Counted from the first letter of the stretch, positions 1,079-18,502 are shown. The stretch is 64,000 bases of DNA from Candidatus Binatia bacterium (GCA_026004215.1 BPIR01000001.1:1543860-1607859), one strand, 5' to 3'. Program-made: numbers and translations. The notes: generated by a model not told the origin, from the letters alone.

Positions 1079-3829
1079 ATGACACGGGCTACAGCCGGCT
1101 GCAGCCAGCGCTCGACAGGGCTGTGCATCGTTTTCGTGCTTCTCCTGCCGATCGAGGGTGTGATTCTGAGTTCGCTCACGGCGTCTTCGAGCGCGGAGGA
1201 GCCCCCATGTCCCGCCGTGTCCTCCTGCTTGGCCGGAGTAGAGTTCGCGACGCCTGGCGACGCCGACTGCGACGGAGATGTGTCGAGCCTCGATCTCGAG
1301 CTGCTGATCCGCACGCTTTTCTGCGACGCTTGCCCGGAGTGCCGGGGAAAAGACGCGAACGAGGATGGCACGGTGTCGGCGGCGGATCTCACGGCTTTGG
1401 TGGCTGTCCTAGCTGAGCCAGTGCCGGCACCGACGGCAACACCCACGCCGGCAGTGACGAACCCCGTCCCGTCGGCAACGCCGCGTCCCGAACCCGACAC
1501 CCCAACACCCTCACCCACCGAAGAGCCCACGCCACAAGCGACCAGCTCGCCGGCGGCAAATGACGAGACGGTTGCGACAACGGTGTACGACTCGACGCGT
1601 TTTCTTTACGAGGGTGGAAACCCACAGCAAAAGGGAGTTGCTCCCGGGACGATCGAGCCGGCGCGGGTGGCGCTGGTGCGCGGACGCGTGCTCGACCGGG
1701 CGGGACGGGGATTCCCCGGGGTAACGGTGACGGTGCTGAACTGTCCCGAGTTCGGCCGCACGACGAGCGATGGCGCGGGGAACTACGCGCTGGCGGTCAA
1801 CGGCGGAGGCCAGCTCACGATCGACTTCCGCAAGGACGGCTTCGTCACGGTGCAGCGCCAGCTGCAGCCCGCCTGGCAGGACTGGGCAGTGGTGGACGAC
1901 ATCGTGATGACGCCGCTGGACACCGAGGCCACCCCGATCGATCTCTCCGGCAATACAACGGCGTGGCAGGTGCATCGGTCGAGCATGCAGAGCGATGTGG
2001 ACGGCACCCGGCGCGCCATGCCGCTGTTTCCGCCCGCCGTCACGGGTGAACTGCTCTTTGCGGACGGCAGCACGGCAGCGCTTGCCCGGTGCGCGGTGCG
2101 CGTGACGGAGGTCATCGTGGGGCCGATGGGCGAGGCGGCGATGCCGGCGGAGCTGCCGCCGACGAGCAACTATACCTACGCCGCCTCTGTCGATTGCGAT
2201 GAGGCGCTGGCCGCGAGCACCGAGCACACCGAGTTCAGTCCCTCGCTGCCGCTTTACGTGGAGAACTTCCTCGGCTTTCCGATCGGGATCGAGGTGCCCT
2301 ACGGCGTCTACGACTCCGCACGGGGTGTGTGGGAAGGCGCGCCGAACGGAGTGGTGCTGCGGGTGACGAGCATCACGGGCCAGATGGCCGATCTCGATCT
2401 CGACAGCGGCGATGGTGGCGATGCGCAGGCGGACCCGGAGCTGTACGCAACGTACGGCATCAGCGACGGCGAGCGCGCAACCCTGGCGGGCCTGAGCGCG
2501 CCCGGGATGGAGTACTGGCACGTCCAGGTGCGCCGCTTCTCGAAGGGGGATCTGAACTGGAGCGCGCTCTTGCCGGCGGGAGCTGGGGCAGCGCCGGGCG
2601 GCGGAACGAGCGGGGGCAACCCGGGACGGCGTCTGACGGACAAGGGGCCCAGGCAGTCGGGCTTCGGCACGATCGAGCCCGAGGAGCAGGTCTTTCACGA
2701 GGACATCGGCCTCGTCGGCCTGCCGTTCACCTTGCACTACACCTCGCGGCGCCAGCCGGGCAGGACGGCGGAGTACGAGGTAAGAGTCCCCATCACCGAT
2801 GCGACACCACCGGCGCCTCTGGAGAAGGTCGTCACGGAGCTTCGGGTGGCGGGGCGAGTGATTCAGAACGAGTGGACGAACGCACCGAACCAGACCGTGA
2901 CGCTCTCCTGGGACGGCCTCGACGCTTTCGGGCGGCCGGCGGTCGGGCGGCAGAAGGCGGAGGTGCGCATTGGCTACGTGTACGTGCCGCAGTTCGTGCG
3001 CGGCCTGGCCTTTGCGGTGCCGCGCTCGGAGGTGCTGCGGCAGGGCCGCGGCGGGCAGCGGCTGACGGTGTGGACGACTCAACCGGTGGCGCTCGGTGAG
3101 GTCGGTACCGAGGCGGCGGGACTCGGTGGCTGGACGCCGTCGATCCTGCACACCTACGACCCGGTGGGTCGCACGCTGCATCTGGGCGACGGCACGGTGC
3201 GCAGCGTGGAGGGCACGGTGTTGGCCTCCGAGGAGCTGGTCAGCGGAGGGGACCTGCCGGACCGCATCTTCCAAGTGCTCGCCGATCGCGACGGCTCGGT
3301 GGTGTTTCTCGAGCTCAGCGCCGGGGAATACCGTATCCGCCGCTACCGGCCGGACACCGGCGCGTTCGAGGTGATCGCCGGAGGCGGGACGGATTTCGAT
3401 CCCGACGACGGCGGGGCGCCGGCGCTGAGCACGCAGATCCTGGTCTCCACATCGACGCGGCAAGCCATCGCGCTCGGCGCGGACGGATCGGTGTACTGGG
3501 CGGAATCGCTGCACCATCGCGTGCGGCGCGTGCGCAACGGGGTGATGGAGACGGTGGCGGGAGCCTACGGACAGGTGTGCCAGCCGGCCACCGACCGTTT
3601 CAATGCCTGCGGGGACGGCGGAGCGGCGCGGGGGCCGACGCTGCACCGGCCGGAGGGTGGAACGTTACGCCTGACGTACGACGGGATCATCCCGTTGAGC
3701 GAGACTACCATCGACTACACGTACGACGAGCGCAGCCGACTACGATCCCACGGCCGGTCGCTGGACGGCGAAAGACCCTATCGGCTTCAACGGCTACCAA
3801 CGAAATCTTTACGCCTACGCGTACAATGA
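1079..3829 (+). CDS. Secreted Rhs/teneurin-like protein with dockerin-like repeat, PT linker, CarboxypepD_reg/TTR-like domain, NHL-like region and YD repeats; a frameshift near 3740 (conserved Rhs core-end motif continues in the +1 frame to 3890)
   Basis: 916-aa ORF with an N-terminal hydrophobic signal. It has a dockerin-type Ca-binding motif (DADCDGDVSSLDLELLIRTLF...NEDGTVSAADLTALVAVL) and a PT-rich linker. The C-terminus carries YD repeats (IDYTYDERSRL). The +1 frame from about 3738 reads YDPTAGRWTAKDPIGFNGYQRNLYAYAYNDPVN, the hallmark Rhs core terminus, with a stop at 3888-3890. Confidence 0.7.
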   Translation: MTRATAGCSQRSTGLCIVFVLLLPIEGVILSSLTASSSAEEPPCPAVSSCLAGVEFATPGDADCDGDVSSLDLELLIRTLFCDACPECRGKDANEDGTVSAADLTALVAVLAEPVPAPTATPTPAVTNPVPSATPRPEPDTPTPSPTEEPTPQATSSPAANDETVATTVYDSTRFLYEGGNPQQKGVAPGTIEPARVALVRGRVLDRAGRGFPGVTVTVLNCPEFGRTTSDGAGNYALAVNGGGQLTIDFRKDGFVTVQRQLQPAWQDWAVVDDIVMTPLDTEATPIDLSGNTTAWQVHRSSMQSDVDGTRRAMPLFPPAVTGELLFADGSTAALARCAVRVTEVIVGPMGEAAMPAELPPTSNYTYAASVDCDEALAASTEHTEFSPSLPLYVENFLGFPIGIEVPYGVYDSARGVWEGAPNGVVLRVTSITGQMADLDLDSGDGGDAQADPELYATYGISDGERATLAGLSAPGMEYWHVQVRRFSKGDLNWSALLPAGAGAAPGGGTSGGNPGRRLTDKGPRQSGFGTIEPEEQVFHEDIGLVGLPFTLHYTSRRQPGRTAEYEVRVPITDATPPAPLEKVVTELRVAGRVIQNEWTNAPNQTVTLSWDGLDAFGRPAVGRQKAEVRIGYVYVPQFVRGLAFAVPRSEVLRQGRGGQRLTVWTTQPVALGEVGTEAAGLGGWTPSILHTYDPVGRTLHLGDGTVRSVEGTVLASEELVSGGDLPDRIFQVLADRDGSVVFLELSAGEYRIRRYRPDTGAFEVIAGGGTDFDPDDGGAPALSTQILVSTSTRQAIALGADGSVYWAESLHHRVRRVRNGVMETVAGAYGQVCQPATDRFNACGDGGAARGPTLHRPEGGTLRLTYDGIIPLSETTIDYTYDERSRLRSHGRSLDGERPYRLQRLPTKSLRLRVQ

Positions 3830-18502: not shown

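Follow-up and report, generated by a model that had tools for sequence, protein, structure and literature searches.

Dockerin-like modules on a truncated teneurin-like protein and a multidomain binding protein of Candidatus Binatia

Two exported proteins, P1 and P2, encoded in a 64-kb stretch of DNA (the window) from MAG KatS3mg077, an uncultured hot-spring bacterium of Candidatus Binatia, each carry a module of about 60 residues with two calcium-binding loop-helix segments near the mature N-terminus. We favor, with moderate confidence, the reading that these modules act as calcium-dependent docking tags for divergent cohesins of the lineage, and that the cargo of P1 has decayed. Since P1 is the front end of a decayed toxin and the window holds no docking partner, the finding extends an already known theme only modestly, and it is a lead rather than a discovery.

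Two separate genes with paired calcium-binding loops

The open reading frames of the two proteins are:

1079-3829, + strand: P1, 916 aa (GIW44044.1, KatS3mg077_1326), dockerin and front part of a bacterial teneurin-like protein
15698-18502, - strand: P2, 934 aa from ATG (GIW44056.1, KatS3mg077_1338), secreted multidomain binding protein

They lie 12 kb apart on opposite strands, with hydantoinase, thiolase-like and MaoC-type genes between them, and thus do not form one locus; the genes are unrelated and separately placed, and both encode Sec-exported modular proteins. P2 had been described as a giant protein, which overstates a chain of only 934 aa. In both proteins the module is followed by a Pro/Thr-rich linker, as had been noted from the sequence. 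Such linkers are widespread in the secreted proteins here, for example in a 1348-aa protein (43002-47048), and as a general feature they do not tie P1 to P2 in the way originally supposed.

All six frames of the window were searched with the calcium-loop pattern [DN]x[DN]x[DNS]Gx[hydrophobic]xxx[DE]. Exactly four loops are present in the 64 kb, as two pairs, all within P1 and P2; when the window was simulated 200 times with a first-order Markov model, the mean was 0.075 loops and pairs never arose. The loops of P1 and P2 are far above chance. The motif sequences quoted in the original prediction are found in the window exactly as written. Its placement of the pair right after the signal peptide is correct for P2, while in P1 a gap of ~20 residues separates the pair from the likely cleavage site.

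A predicted type-I-like dockerin in P1

The N-terminal part of P1 contains:

1079-1195, + strand: likely Sec signal peptide (residues 1-39), cleavage after ASSSA, judged by eye
1253-1399, + strand: dockerin module, two 22-residue segments, DADCDGDVSSLD... and DANEDGTVSAAD..., with Asp at loop position 12 in each
1409-1552, + strand: Pro/Thr/Ser-rich linker

The module consists of tandem segments of ~22 residues with calcium-ligand residues at loop positions 1, 3, 5, 9 and 12. It matches Pfam Dockerin_1 (PF00404) over residues 59-107, in two stretches, with 25.7 bits (gathering cutoff 22.9), and a local subtype profile with 97.8 bits. Its best sequence matches in PDB are the dockerins 4fl4_A, 2ccl_B and 1daq. 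A low-confidence model (pLDDT 56) places a helix after each loop, at 17-27 and 48-58, and the best Foldseek matches of this model are also dockerins (E = 0.65, TM ~0.5). These sequence features point to a canonical type-I-like dockerin, and the passed gathering score bears out the description of the P1 module as dockerin-like. Because P1 lies above the Dockerin_1 threshold, the objection that a joint absence of Dockerin_1 matches and of cohesins would have raised against the original prediction does not arise.

A divergent dockerin-like module in P2

The following features were recognized in P2:

18362-18502, - strand: likely signal peptide (residues 1-47), cleavage after AIA, judged by eye
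18173-18361, - strand: dockerin-like module (residues 48-110), loops DCDDDGSVTVNE and DTDGDGRITVDE
17438-18055, - strand: domain of no family (residues ~150-355), flanked by Pro/Thr linkers
16463-17260, - strand: LamG/concanavalin-like domain, PF13385 (Laminin_G_3), 47.9 bits, cutoff 27.6; Pfam match at residues 587-666
16256-16348, - strand: six-cysteine mini-domain CRFVGPRMCGGTCPNPNEVCVPKPDDSGCHC
15845-16036, - strand: SdrD B-like domain, sub-threshold (PF17210, 20.5 bits, cutoff 29.7)

The P2 module has four conserved cysteines, which may form disulfides, and a Glu at loop position 12; its loops are 32 residues apart. The Dockerin_1 check on this module failed: no match was obtained at E <= 1, and its close relatives in the family reach 14-21.5 bits. 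With a profile of the four-Cys Glu-12 family the P2 module obtains 92.7 bits, and with the P1-type profile 22 bits (E = 8e-5); the subtypes cross-match. The AlphaFold model of the module (pLDDT 90.9) contains helices at 17-27, 33-39 and 49-61. When it is compared with PDB using Foldseek, the top 20 matches are all dockerins (TM 0.57-0.65, probability 0.84-1.0), with E-values that are weak (0.05-0.7) as a result of the small size of the domain. The model has the dockerin fold, two loop-helix units joined by a short linker helix, and can be superposed on solved dockerins. The label of dockerin-like can thus be retained for P2 as well, since the confident model matches only type I dockerins in PDB.

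By sequence, in both Pfam and PDB matches, the P2 module is closer to EF-hands than to dockerins. Assignment as an EF-hand pair was rejected: EF-hand_1 (22.0 bits, cutoff 25.4) and EF-hand_7 (18.8 bits, cutoff 30) are both below threshold, and EF-hand structures reach only TM ~0.3 with an rmsd of ~10 Å in Foldseek.

The module shares with calmodulin-type EF-hand pairs (PF00036, PF13499) the 12-residue DxDxDG loop, the canonical Glu at position 12, and weak sequence matches to Pfam EF-hand models and to calmodulin-type chains in PDB. Such resemblances would suit an autonomous, partnerless calcium-binding domain of the EF-hand-pair type, which stabilizes or calcium-regulates the protein that carries it and whose likeness to dockerins is structural only. 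However, the module stays below the cutoff for all EF-hand models and lacks the entering helix before loop 1, as it begins directly after the signal peptide, and its confident model fits dockerins (TM ~0.6) and not EF-hand pairs (TM ~0.3). The P1 module, moreover, is above the Dockerin_1 threshold. We therefore regard autonomous domains of this type as rather unlikely, a judgment to which the distribution of cohesins described below also contributes.

At E <= 1e-3 the P2-type module family comprises 15,253 cluster representatives, a number that falls to 8,439 with the stricter E <= 1e-10. A degenerate DNA pattern for the module occurs in at least 120 stretches, and the matches listed come mostly from Candidatus Binatia MAGs, with several loci per genome. 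Orthologs of P2 at 51-56% identity retain the N-terminal module, and across proteins the module may be N-terminal, internal or C-terminal. By profile and pattern searches, the P2 module belongs to a very large, Binatia-typical subfamily that is missed by Pfam.

The cargo of P2 is a non-enzymatic binding array, made up of the family-less domain, the LamG domain, the Cys-rich mini-domain and the SdrD-B-like domain. Residues ~150-355 have no Pfam or NCBIfam match, and their likeness to cohesin is below 1% probability in hhalign. The six-cysteine mini-domain is also present in two other proteins (P0066 and P0087). Of the LamG/SdrD-B architecture originally proposed, the LamG part is well founded in the Laminin_G_3 score, while SdrD_B stays under its cutoff.

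Divergent cohesins in related MAGs

In the 64-kb window, neither cohesin nor SLH domains were found among 33 Pfam-scanned ORFs, some of which overlap on opposite strands, and no cohesin was detected by a local cohesin profile applied to all six-frame ORFs or by hhalign of three family-less domains. Among related sequences, one protein (P0142) combines a Dockerin_1 match (29.8 bits), a Cohesin match (35.2 bits, cutoff 24.1) and a P2-type module, and one locus (L081) has a Pfam Cohesin match of 24.4 bits, above the cutoff. When the local profile was iterated over 121 module-bearing loci, ~24 cohesin-like domains emerged, spread over 13 of the loci, a rate that is biased because the loci were picked for carrying the module; seven ORFs with cohesin-like domains in these loci also hold paired loops. 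In a larger set of 305 proteins, 31 have cohesin-like domains; 22 of these belong to the 148 proteins that the 150 best module representatives newly contributed. Among the best module-bearing proteins, ~85% thus have no cohesin themselves. Pfam detects a minority of these domains, with two above the cutoff and several at 16-21 bits. A profile of 18 cohesin-like domains matches only cohesins in PDB, the best being 5n5p_A (E = 1.6e-10, full length).

Cohesin-like domains were found in MAGs labelled Candidatus Binatia (L014, L017, L074 and P0125). One protein from a related MAG contains two cohesins and a MYXO-CTERM signal (TIGR03901, 28 bits, cutoff 20); no equivalent of this anchored protein was identified within the window. 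By these profile matches, the related MAGs encode divergent but genuine cohesins, often fused to the P2-type module. Tethering through cohesins is plausible for this reason, and docking would be plausible in the present genome, which may encode a partner. The absence of a cohesin from the window, the majority of module-bearing proteins without one, and the occurrence of the module at either terminus or internally would also be compatible with the autonomous EF-hand-type domains considered above; the repeated fusion of the module to genuine cohesins, or its position beside them, one of them anchored, argues against these.

We propose that the modules, which lie near the N-terminus of mature P1 and P2 and are joined to the rest by a Pro/Thr linker, are probably calcium-dependent docking tags. 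They would bind divergent cohesins on other secreted proteins of the lineage, some of which may be held at the cell surface via the MYXO-CTERM sorting signal, so that the cargo would be either exposed on the cell or incorporated by cross-linking into an assembly outside it. A wider and more tentative possibility is that a large cohesin-dockerin system of non-cellulosomal type operates in Binatia and other, allied uncultured lineages, with thousands of secreted proteins that carry the four-Cys Glu-12 variant, overlooked by present domain libraries, and bind divergent cohesins. Some of the cohesins would then reside on MYXO-CTERM-anchored proteins and many on dockerin-bearing ones, such that chains or networks could form. 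Lectin-like adhesins of the P2 kind would be among the cargos, and so, in ancestral forms at least, would teneurin-like toxins of the P1 kind.

Relation to known dockerins

The modules resemble cellulosomal type I dockerins (PF00404; 2ccl_B, 4fl4_A, 1daq/2mte) in their two loop-helix segments of ~22 residues, Asp/Asn at positions 1, 3 and 5, an acidic position 12, a three-helix fold (modelled with confidence for P2), a size of ~60 residues and a Pro/Thr linker to the cargo. Cellulosomal dockerins are usually C-terminal, whereas the modules of P1 and P2 are N-terminal. The host also differs, a Binatia bacterium in place of a Firmicute that degrades cellulose; neither cargo is a carbohydrate-active enzyme, and no scaffoldin lies nearby. 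The P2 type departs further by its four conserved cysteines, by Glu instead of Asp at position 12 and by its failure to match the Pfam model.

Dockerin-like modules beyond cellulosomes were reportedly the subject of an earlier reference, a 2009 study in FEMS Microbiol Lett 291:1. As in other non-cellulosomal dockerins, the modules described here occur on secreted, non-cellulolytic proteins of uncultured bacteria, with a proposed role in adhesion or assembly; a giant ORF of Omnitrophota, for example, has nine dockerin domains and a proposed adhesin role (PMC10066038). The partner of non-cellulosomal dockerins is often unknown, whereas the relatives from Binatia supply candidate divergent cohesins, many of them fused to the module and one with MYXO-CTERM. 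In the literature that could be searched, no paper was found that connects dockerins or cohesins with Binatia or Binatota.

Taken alone, the window provides two tagged proteins and one dead toxin gene, but no partner. If the docking reading is true, a major lineage of uncultured soil and hot-spring bacteria, with no connection to cellulose breakdown, would have its surface organized by the cohesin-dockerin principle, with a dockerin variant capable of forming disulfides and with a sorting signal of the Gram-negative type in place of SLH domains. It would also give an annotation handle on thousands of "hypothetical" secreted proteins, provide a possibly thermostable, orthogonal cohesin-dockerin pair for protein engineering, and add dockerins to the N-terminal display modules of bacterial teneurin-like proteins.

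P1 is a truncated teneurin-like protein

Downstream of the linker, P1 and the adjoining sequence contain:

1658-1909, + strand: transthyretin-like (TTR/CarboxypepD_reg) domain, PF25020 (TTR_TEN1-4) 74.8 bits, PF13620 40.7 bits
1910-2782, + strand: region between TTR and FN-plug, putative TIP insertion domain, positioned by comparison with PMC13018210
2783-2983, + strand: FN-plug domain, PF24329 (FN-plug_TEN1-4) 26.7 bits, slightly under the cutoff of 27.8
3242-3658, + strand: partial NHL propeller, ~2 blades and the start of a third (TEN_NHL 14.1 bits, weak; blade motifs by eye)
3639-3763, + strand: YD-repeat remnant in the P1 frame (..RLTYDG..TIDYTYDERSRL), aligns to the terminal YD repeats of P0026
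3741-3842, + strand: Rhs-core end remnant YDPTAGRWTAKDPIGFNGYQRNLYAYAYNDPVNT, frame +1 relative to P1 (three-frame translation)

Bacterial teneurin-like proteins (TLPs) are defined by FN-plug, NHL and YD-shell, and a TIP insertion domain is known from them (PMC13018210). The solved TLP is that of Bacillus inaquosorum (PDB 9ifo/9pt5; Raoelijaona et al. 2026, PMC13018210). Residues 162-829 of P1 align to residues 365-1044 of this 2237-residue protein (9ifo_A/9pt5_A) with E = 3e-115, and the putative insertion region falls inside this alignment. The FN-plug region is covered by alignments to the solved TLP and to teneurins. P1 is TLP-like in having TTR, insertion region, a probable FN-plug and the start of NHL, with a variable N-terminal module before TTR (PMC13018210). 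The main text and 12 supplements of that paper mention neither dockerin nor Binatia.

P1 differs from TLPs in that most of NHL is missing, together with the YD shell, the Rhs core and the toxin domain at the C-terminus. Alignments with the NHL regions of teneurins end at P1 residue ~861-878, and those of homologs stop at nt ~3655-3706, so that the six-bladed propeller is incomplete, with ~2.3 blades. Alignment to the solved bacterial protein reveals no counterpart of its residues ~1045-2237, and tblastn with long homologs as queries detects no homologous sequence past nt 3775. The YD shell is absent: TIGR01643 scores 11.7 bits, under the cutoff, one or two terminal repeats are left at the extreme end of P1, and no YD sequence follows downstream. 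The stretch YDPTAGRWTAKDPIGFNGYQRNLYAYAYNDPVNT, which we take to be the Rhs-core end motif, ends in ..NDPVNT, with a stop codon 15 codons downstream, and three-frame translation shows no DPxGL motif or toxin after it.

The cargo of P1 is only the front third of a bacterial TLP, with TTR, putative insertion domain, probable FN-plug and ~2.3 NHL blades. Its gene is broken inside the NHL propeller, and the YD shell has gone through a deletion within the gene, a shift of frame and the removal of the toxin end; as it stands, P1 cannot work as a toxin of the Rhs or teneurin type. The TTR-like domain of the original prediction is confirmed by both Pfam scores, and the teneurin order is correct for TTR, FN-plug and NHL, with the YD domain missing. 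The predicted NHL-like repeats exist and end within about the third blade, whereas the YD-repeat domain is reduced to the one or two repeats noted above.

P1 is the second of two tandem paralogs. The duplication and the sequence beyond it comprise:

1-426, + strand: 3' end of the upstream tandem paralog of P1 (GIW44041.1, KatS3mg077_1323, residues 773-913)
1-244, + strand: direct repeat copy 1, 99% identical to 3395-3638, period 3394 nt
3395-3638, + strand: direct repeat copy 2, last stretch common to both paralogs
3800-4800, no strand: low-GC island, GC 0.45-0.48 versus ~0.62-0.68 elsewhere
3887-4480, + strand: ORF in the low-GC island, 197 aa, signal-peptide-like start

Residues 773-913 of the upstream paralog (P0001) are 100% identical to window 1-423 by tblastn. 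The similarity between the paralogs stops abruptly after position 244, corresponding to a breakpoint at about P1 residue 853. The source is a metagenome assembly, YD-repeat genes are difficult to assemble, and in the assemblies that contain other short homologs the gene is broken up into several ORFs. Given also that the two copies share 99% identity across their final 244 nt and part at one sharp point, the truncation and duplication could be conceived as an assembly artefact of the MAG, the real genome encoding one teneurin-like toxin, or two, at full length and with a dockerin. Following the shared stretch out of either copy, however, leads to no further part of the NHL propeller, and the copies differ at ~4% of residues over 871 aa, so that they are not one collapsed sequence. 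The Rhs-core end, in another frame and running into the low-GC island, has the look of a decayed Rhs locus. We consider an artefact improbable.

Very improbable is the reading of the original prediction, in which P1 is a functional Rhs/teneurin-like polymorphic toxin held at the surface by a cohesin-dockerin bond: the above-threshold dockerin, the correct order of TTR, FN-plug and NHL, the ORFs of ~850 residues kept in both paralogs, and the variable N-terminal modules of published TLPs that are thought to govern surface display (PMC13018210) would fit it, but it is already contradicted, unless the assembly is wrong, by the missing YD shell, in-frame Rhs core and toxin domain, with most of NHL and any counterpart to TLP residues ~1045-2237 also lacking and no cohesin in the window.

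The preferred reading of P1 as a decayed cargo is in line with its surroundings. Among Rhs elements, decayed Rhs/YD-repeat loci with displaced or orphan C-terminal modules are known. Like these, P1 has a GC-rich core ending in ..DPIGFxGxxxNLYAYxxNDPVN followed directly by a low-GC segment, a small ORF in the immunity-gene position, and signs of duplication and rearrangement. Unlike them, it retains only a few dozen core residues, which are out of frame, it has neither a toxin nor the DPxGL cleavage motif, and the downstream 197-aa ORF (3887-4480) matches no recognizable family. The low-GC island occupies the place expected for an Rhs toxin/immunity module.

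Two proteins with paired calcium-binding loops

The two proteins with a dockerin-like N-terminal module, P1 (ORF 1079-3829, plus strand, 916 residues) and P2 (ORF 15698-18502, minus strand, 934 residues), correspond exactly to database entries GIW44044.1 (KatS3mg077_1326) and GIW44056.1 (KatS3mg077_1338). Both come from the metagenome-assembled genome (MAG) Candidatus Binatia bacterium KatS3mg077, lie on a contig of 1,736,220 nt and are annotated only as hypothetical proteins. A six-frame regular-expression search of the whole window (G+C 59-68%) finds four 12-residue calcium-binding loops, forming two pairs, all inside P1 and P2, compared to a chance expectation of 0.075 loops on average and zero pairs in 200 first-order Markov simulations. 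The motifs quoted in the original prediction are found in these two ORFs exactly as written. The module was said to follow the signal peptide directly in both proteins. With signal-peptide-like N-termini and cleavage sites judged by eye, this describes P2, where the module begins right behind a likely site between AIA and E, but not P1, where it starts ~20 residues behind the likely site. A Pro/Thr linker does follow each module, as predicted, but such linkers are not special to this pair, since a 1348-residue protein (43002-47048) also has one, of ~150 residues.

P1 and P2 do not form one locus, because genes for hydantoinase A and B, a thiolase-like protein, a MaoC-type hydratase, PAP2 and TauE intervene. 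An operon or island joining them was rejected, as the intervening genes are metabolic and P1 and P2 lie on opposite strands. The metabolic genes, including two located farther on, are:

7742-8623, minus strand, MaoC-type gene, adjoining the hydantoinase A-B pair
9929-13936, minus strand, hydantoinase/oxoprolinase A-B pair, between P1 and P2
14322-15503, minus strand, thiolase-like gene, adjoining the hydantoinase A-B pair
47141-48415, minus strand, cytochrome P450 gene, farther on
53562-55226, minus strand, second hydantoinase B gene, farther on

Lipid and alkane-type metabolism has been reported for Binatia, and the hydantoinase, thiolase-like, MaoC-type and P450 genes fit it.

Dockerin-like modules of P1 and P2

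The P1 module (residues 59-107) matches Pfam Dockerin_1 with 25.7 bits (cutoff 22.9). Its two segments, DADCDGDVSSLDLELLIRTL and DANEDGTVSAADLTALVAVL, both have an aspartate at loop position 12, as in cellulosomal dockerins, and its best sequence matches in the PDB are dockerins, 4fl4_A (E = 0.004) followed by 2ccl_B and 1daq. A structural model from a 4-sequence alignment reached a pLDDT of 56; dockerins head its Foldseek list, which is weak evidence given the poor model. Another module of this type was seen in the Binatia-like genome HR30.

The P2 module contains four cysteines and a glutamate at loop position 12. It has no match to Dockerin_1, all Pfam EF-hand models score under threshold, and its best PDB matches by sequence are calmodulin-type proteins. 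The AlphaFold model, based on an alignment of such modules, reaches a pLDDT of 90.9 and folds as loop-helix, short helix, loop-helix. The top 20 Foldseek matches to the PDB are all dockerins (TM 0.57-0.65, probability 0.84-1.0), with EF-hand proteins far behind in the same search (TM ~0.3, rmsd ~10 Å). Thus, the predicted dockerin assignment stands for P1 at the family level, and for P2 by fold but not by Dockerin_1 score. The two types are related, because the P2 module matches a profile of P1-type modules (22 bits, E = 8e-5).

The same ~64-residue module is present in about 30 proteins retrieved with full-length P2, with the consensus C.GDC[DN]..G.VT[VI].E[IL]..(L/M)VNIALG.....C..GD.N.DG.[IV]T[IV].E[IL]..AV..AL.GC, and the family profile gives P2 itself 92.7 bits. 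The module's carriers are varied secreted proteins, in which it lies at the N-terminus, internally or at the C-terminus; they include proteins with convertase P-domain, choice-of-anchor Q, CSLREA, matrixin, beta-helix and FG-GAP regions. When 1.84 billion cluster representatives were searched exhaustively with the profile, 15,253 proteins matched at E <= 1e-3, 8,439 of them at E <= 1e-10. At the DNA level, a degenerate pattern representing the module's first half matched at least 120 stretches in a collection of species-representative genomes; among the matches listed, the majority belong to MAGs named Candidatus Binatia or, under older names, Deltaproteobacteria bacterium or Bacterium HR30, and there are several loci per genome. 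This very widespread, lineage-typical building block has no name in Pfam or NCBIfam. A 690-residue protein with a matrixin (Peptidase_M10) domain (34299-36371, minus strand) lacks the module, which is carried by relatives of its class. The window also encodes a full DsbD thiol:disulfide interchange protein (29016-30941, plus strand), consistent with disulfide-bonded secreted proteins.

Cohesins in the window and in related proteins

The implied partner is absent from the window: Pfam detects neither cohesin nor SLH domains in 33 ORFs (nearly all those of at least 250 residues up to about nt 55,000, some overlapping on opposite strands), and a local cohesin profile has no match in any six-frame ORF. 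Three family-less domains were considered as diverged cohesins and rejected, with an hhalign probability below 1% for each: ORF 8732-9829, residues ~150-355 of P2, and the C-terminal domain of the 1348-residue protein. ORF 8732-9829 (plus strand, 365 residues) has no family match; it has a signal-peptide-like start, and the hydrophobic stretch and RARR at its end look like a C-terminal sorting signal.

Among the homologous proteins retrieved, P0142 combines a beta-propeller, a Dockerin_1 domain (29.8 bits), a cohesin (35.2 bits, cutoff 24.1) and a C-terminal P2-type module. Its cohesin served as the seed for local phmmer/hmmsearch iterations over 121 module-bearing loci (843 kb), which yielded about 24 cohesin-like domains in 18 ORF fragments from 13 loci; seven of the 18 fragments also contain paired calcium-binding loops. 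Pfam detects these domains only in part. One locus (L081) is just over the Cohesin cutoff at 24.4 bits, and six others reach 16.6-20.8 bits, Cohesin being their sole family besides EF-hand. A profile built from 18 of the domains matches only cohesins in the PDB (19 of 19), the best being 5n5p_A over the full length (E = 1.6e-10). The same profile identifies cohesin-like domains in 31 of 305 fetched proteins; among the 31 are P0125 from a Candidatus Binatia MAG and 22 of the 148 new proteins from the 150 best module representatives.

Locus L118 (SMAG_U14717) has five adjoining ORF fragments with cohesins at about 2689-7248. One of its ORFs consists of a signal peptide, two cohesins, a Pro/Thr linker and a terminal MYXO-CTERM segment (TIGR03901, 28 bits, cutoff 20), so that at least one cohesin protein of the relatives looks surface-anchored. 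Judging from P0142, the cohesin-only PDB profile, L118 and the 31 proteins, the lineages that use the P2-type module possess genuine, divergent cohesins. A repeated GD.(S/T)(I/L)DIFDVR pair in two of the L118 fragments appears to be a further, third dockerin-like variant. Although this MAG bears the name Margulisiibacteriota, Binatia-type modules are numerous in it, which suggests a possible mislabelling.

On the best-supported reading, P1 and P2 each carry a dockerin-type tag that would dock onto cohesins belonging to a non-cellulosomal system. The main rival, an autonomous calcium-binding domain that has no partner, is rather unlikely; both the fold match of the P2 module to dockerins and the repeated fusions of module and cohesin in relatives weaken it. 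In 2009, Peer et al. reportedly described dockerins and cohesins for many non-cellulolytic organisms, a picture that the docking-tag reading extends. It also matches a comparable proposal already made for dockerin-rich giant ORFs of Omnitrophota (PMC10066038). Our literature search found no paper tying Binatia or Binatota to cohesin or dockerin, and nothing relevant on dockerin together with Rhs and YD repeats. A by-product of greater interest is the four-cysteine dockerin subfamily together with the cohesins that accompany it, although this too is a variant of a familiar kind of system.

P1 as a remnant of a teneurin-like gene

Homologs of P1 are bacterial teneurin-like YD proteins with differing N-terminal modules (e.g. 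PKD, IPT/TIG or Big); among them, a dockerin is shared only by the tandem paralog P0001 (GIW44041.1) and the unrelated P0036. Residues 162-829 of P1 align with 365-1044 of a bacterial Teneurin-Like Protein of 2237 residues whose structure is solved (9ifo_A/9pt5_A, E = 3e-115), and matches to animal teneurins reach E values of about 1e-23. Pfam identifies TTR (74.8 bits), FN-plug just below the cutoff (26.7 bits) and weak NHL. TTR and FN-plug are separated by ~290 residues, in the position that Raoelijaona et al. 2026 (PMC13018210) assign to the TIP insertion domain in bacterial TLPs. The same paper proposes that bacterial TLPs owe their mode of display to their N-terminal modules, and a docking tag at the N-terminus agrees with this; it mentions neither dockerin nor Binatia in its text or supplements.

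The alignment to long homologs breaks off at nt ~3655-3706, and a homology search with these homologs found no YD-like sequence farther downstream. P1 residues ~854-895 align with the final YD repeats of one homolog (P0026), and frame +1 relative to P1 encodes, at nt 3741-3842, YDPTAGRWTAKDPIGFNGYQRNLYAYAYNDPVNT, which we take to be the end of an Rhs core. The DPxGL motif is absent after it, and a stop codon occurs 15 codons later. Directly behind this remnant, G+C drops to 0.45-0.48 for about 1 kb (3800-4800). The low-GC island contains ORF 3887-4480 (plus strand, 197 residues), which begins like a signal peptide, matches no family in Pfam or NCBIfam, and is possibly an orphaned immunity-type gene from the decayed toxin locus. 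Nearby, ORF 4821-5432 (minus strand) contains CPNCTGEMRLIAFLTE...ILAHLGEP, presumably the C-terminal signature of IS91-family transposases; this assignment has no match in the domain libraries.

By its sequence, P1 is the front portion of a decayed teneurin-like/Rhs gene that has undergone an internal deletion and a frameshift and has lost its toxin, and it is not a functional polymorphic toxin. The original prediction of an Rhs toxin tethered through cohesin fails, since only a remnant of the toxin gene is left; the partner is missing from the window.

Two tandem paralogs are present, and P1 is the later one: window 1-423 is the 3' end of GIW44041.1 (encoding residues 773-913 at 100% identity), and a stretch of 244 nt is repeated (1-244 equals 3395-3638, 99% DNA identity, period 3394 nt). 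The two proteins are 96% identical over ~870 residues. Both copies diverge abruptly at the same nucleotide, after position 244 or 3638, and the upstream copy runs on into the sequence that forms the upstream region of P1. A short TTR/FN-plug protein was rejected as the natural architecture of two other short homologs, P0006 and P0008. Their loci, L122 and L123, are split into several ORFs, with the TTR/FN-plug ORF followed by separate NHL/YD-shell ORFs and Y1 or DDE transposase genes near; they reflect either frequent decay of such genes or frameshift errors in the assemblies. An assembly artefact behind the truncated, tandemly duplicated state of P1 is unlikely and would not account for why the NHL propeller continues in neither copy. 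Within the decay reading, the ~850-residue open frames kept in both P1 and P0001 despite about 4% divergence leave room for a retained function of P1 as a short surface protein.

P2 beyond the module

Predicted to be a giant LamG/SdrD-B protein, P2 is not a giant at 934 residues; its LamG domain is confirmed (47.9 bits), but the SdrD-B-like region is under threshold. Behind the module, a family-less domain of ~200 residues precedes LamG, a six-cysteine mini-domain and the SdrD-B-like region, with Pro/Thr/Ser linkers between all domains. The mini-domain, CRFVGPRMCGGTCPNPNEVCVPKPDDSGCHC (16256-16348, minus strand, residues 719-749), has no family assignment and recurs in other Binatia proteins, with three copies in P0066 (KatS3mg076) and one in P0087. 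No catalytic domain and no PDB sequence match were seen for P2, and its orthologs (51-56% identity) retain the N-terminal module. From this domain composition, P2 reads as a probable secreted binding or adhesin-type protein.

The 1348-residue protein (43002-47048, plus strand) is also secreted-looking. It contains YVTN beta-propeller repeats, two CxxCH haem motifs and a C-terminal domain without a family, and weakly resembles MbnH/di-haem and hydrazine-synthase-type proteins. Just upstream of it, at 40507-41772 on the minus strand, is a gene for a di-haem cytochrome c peroxidase.
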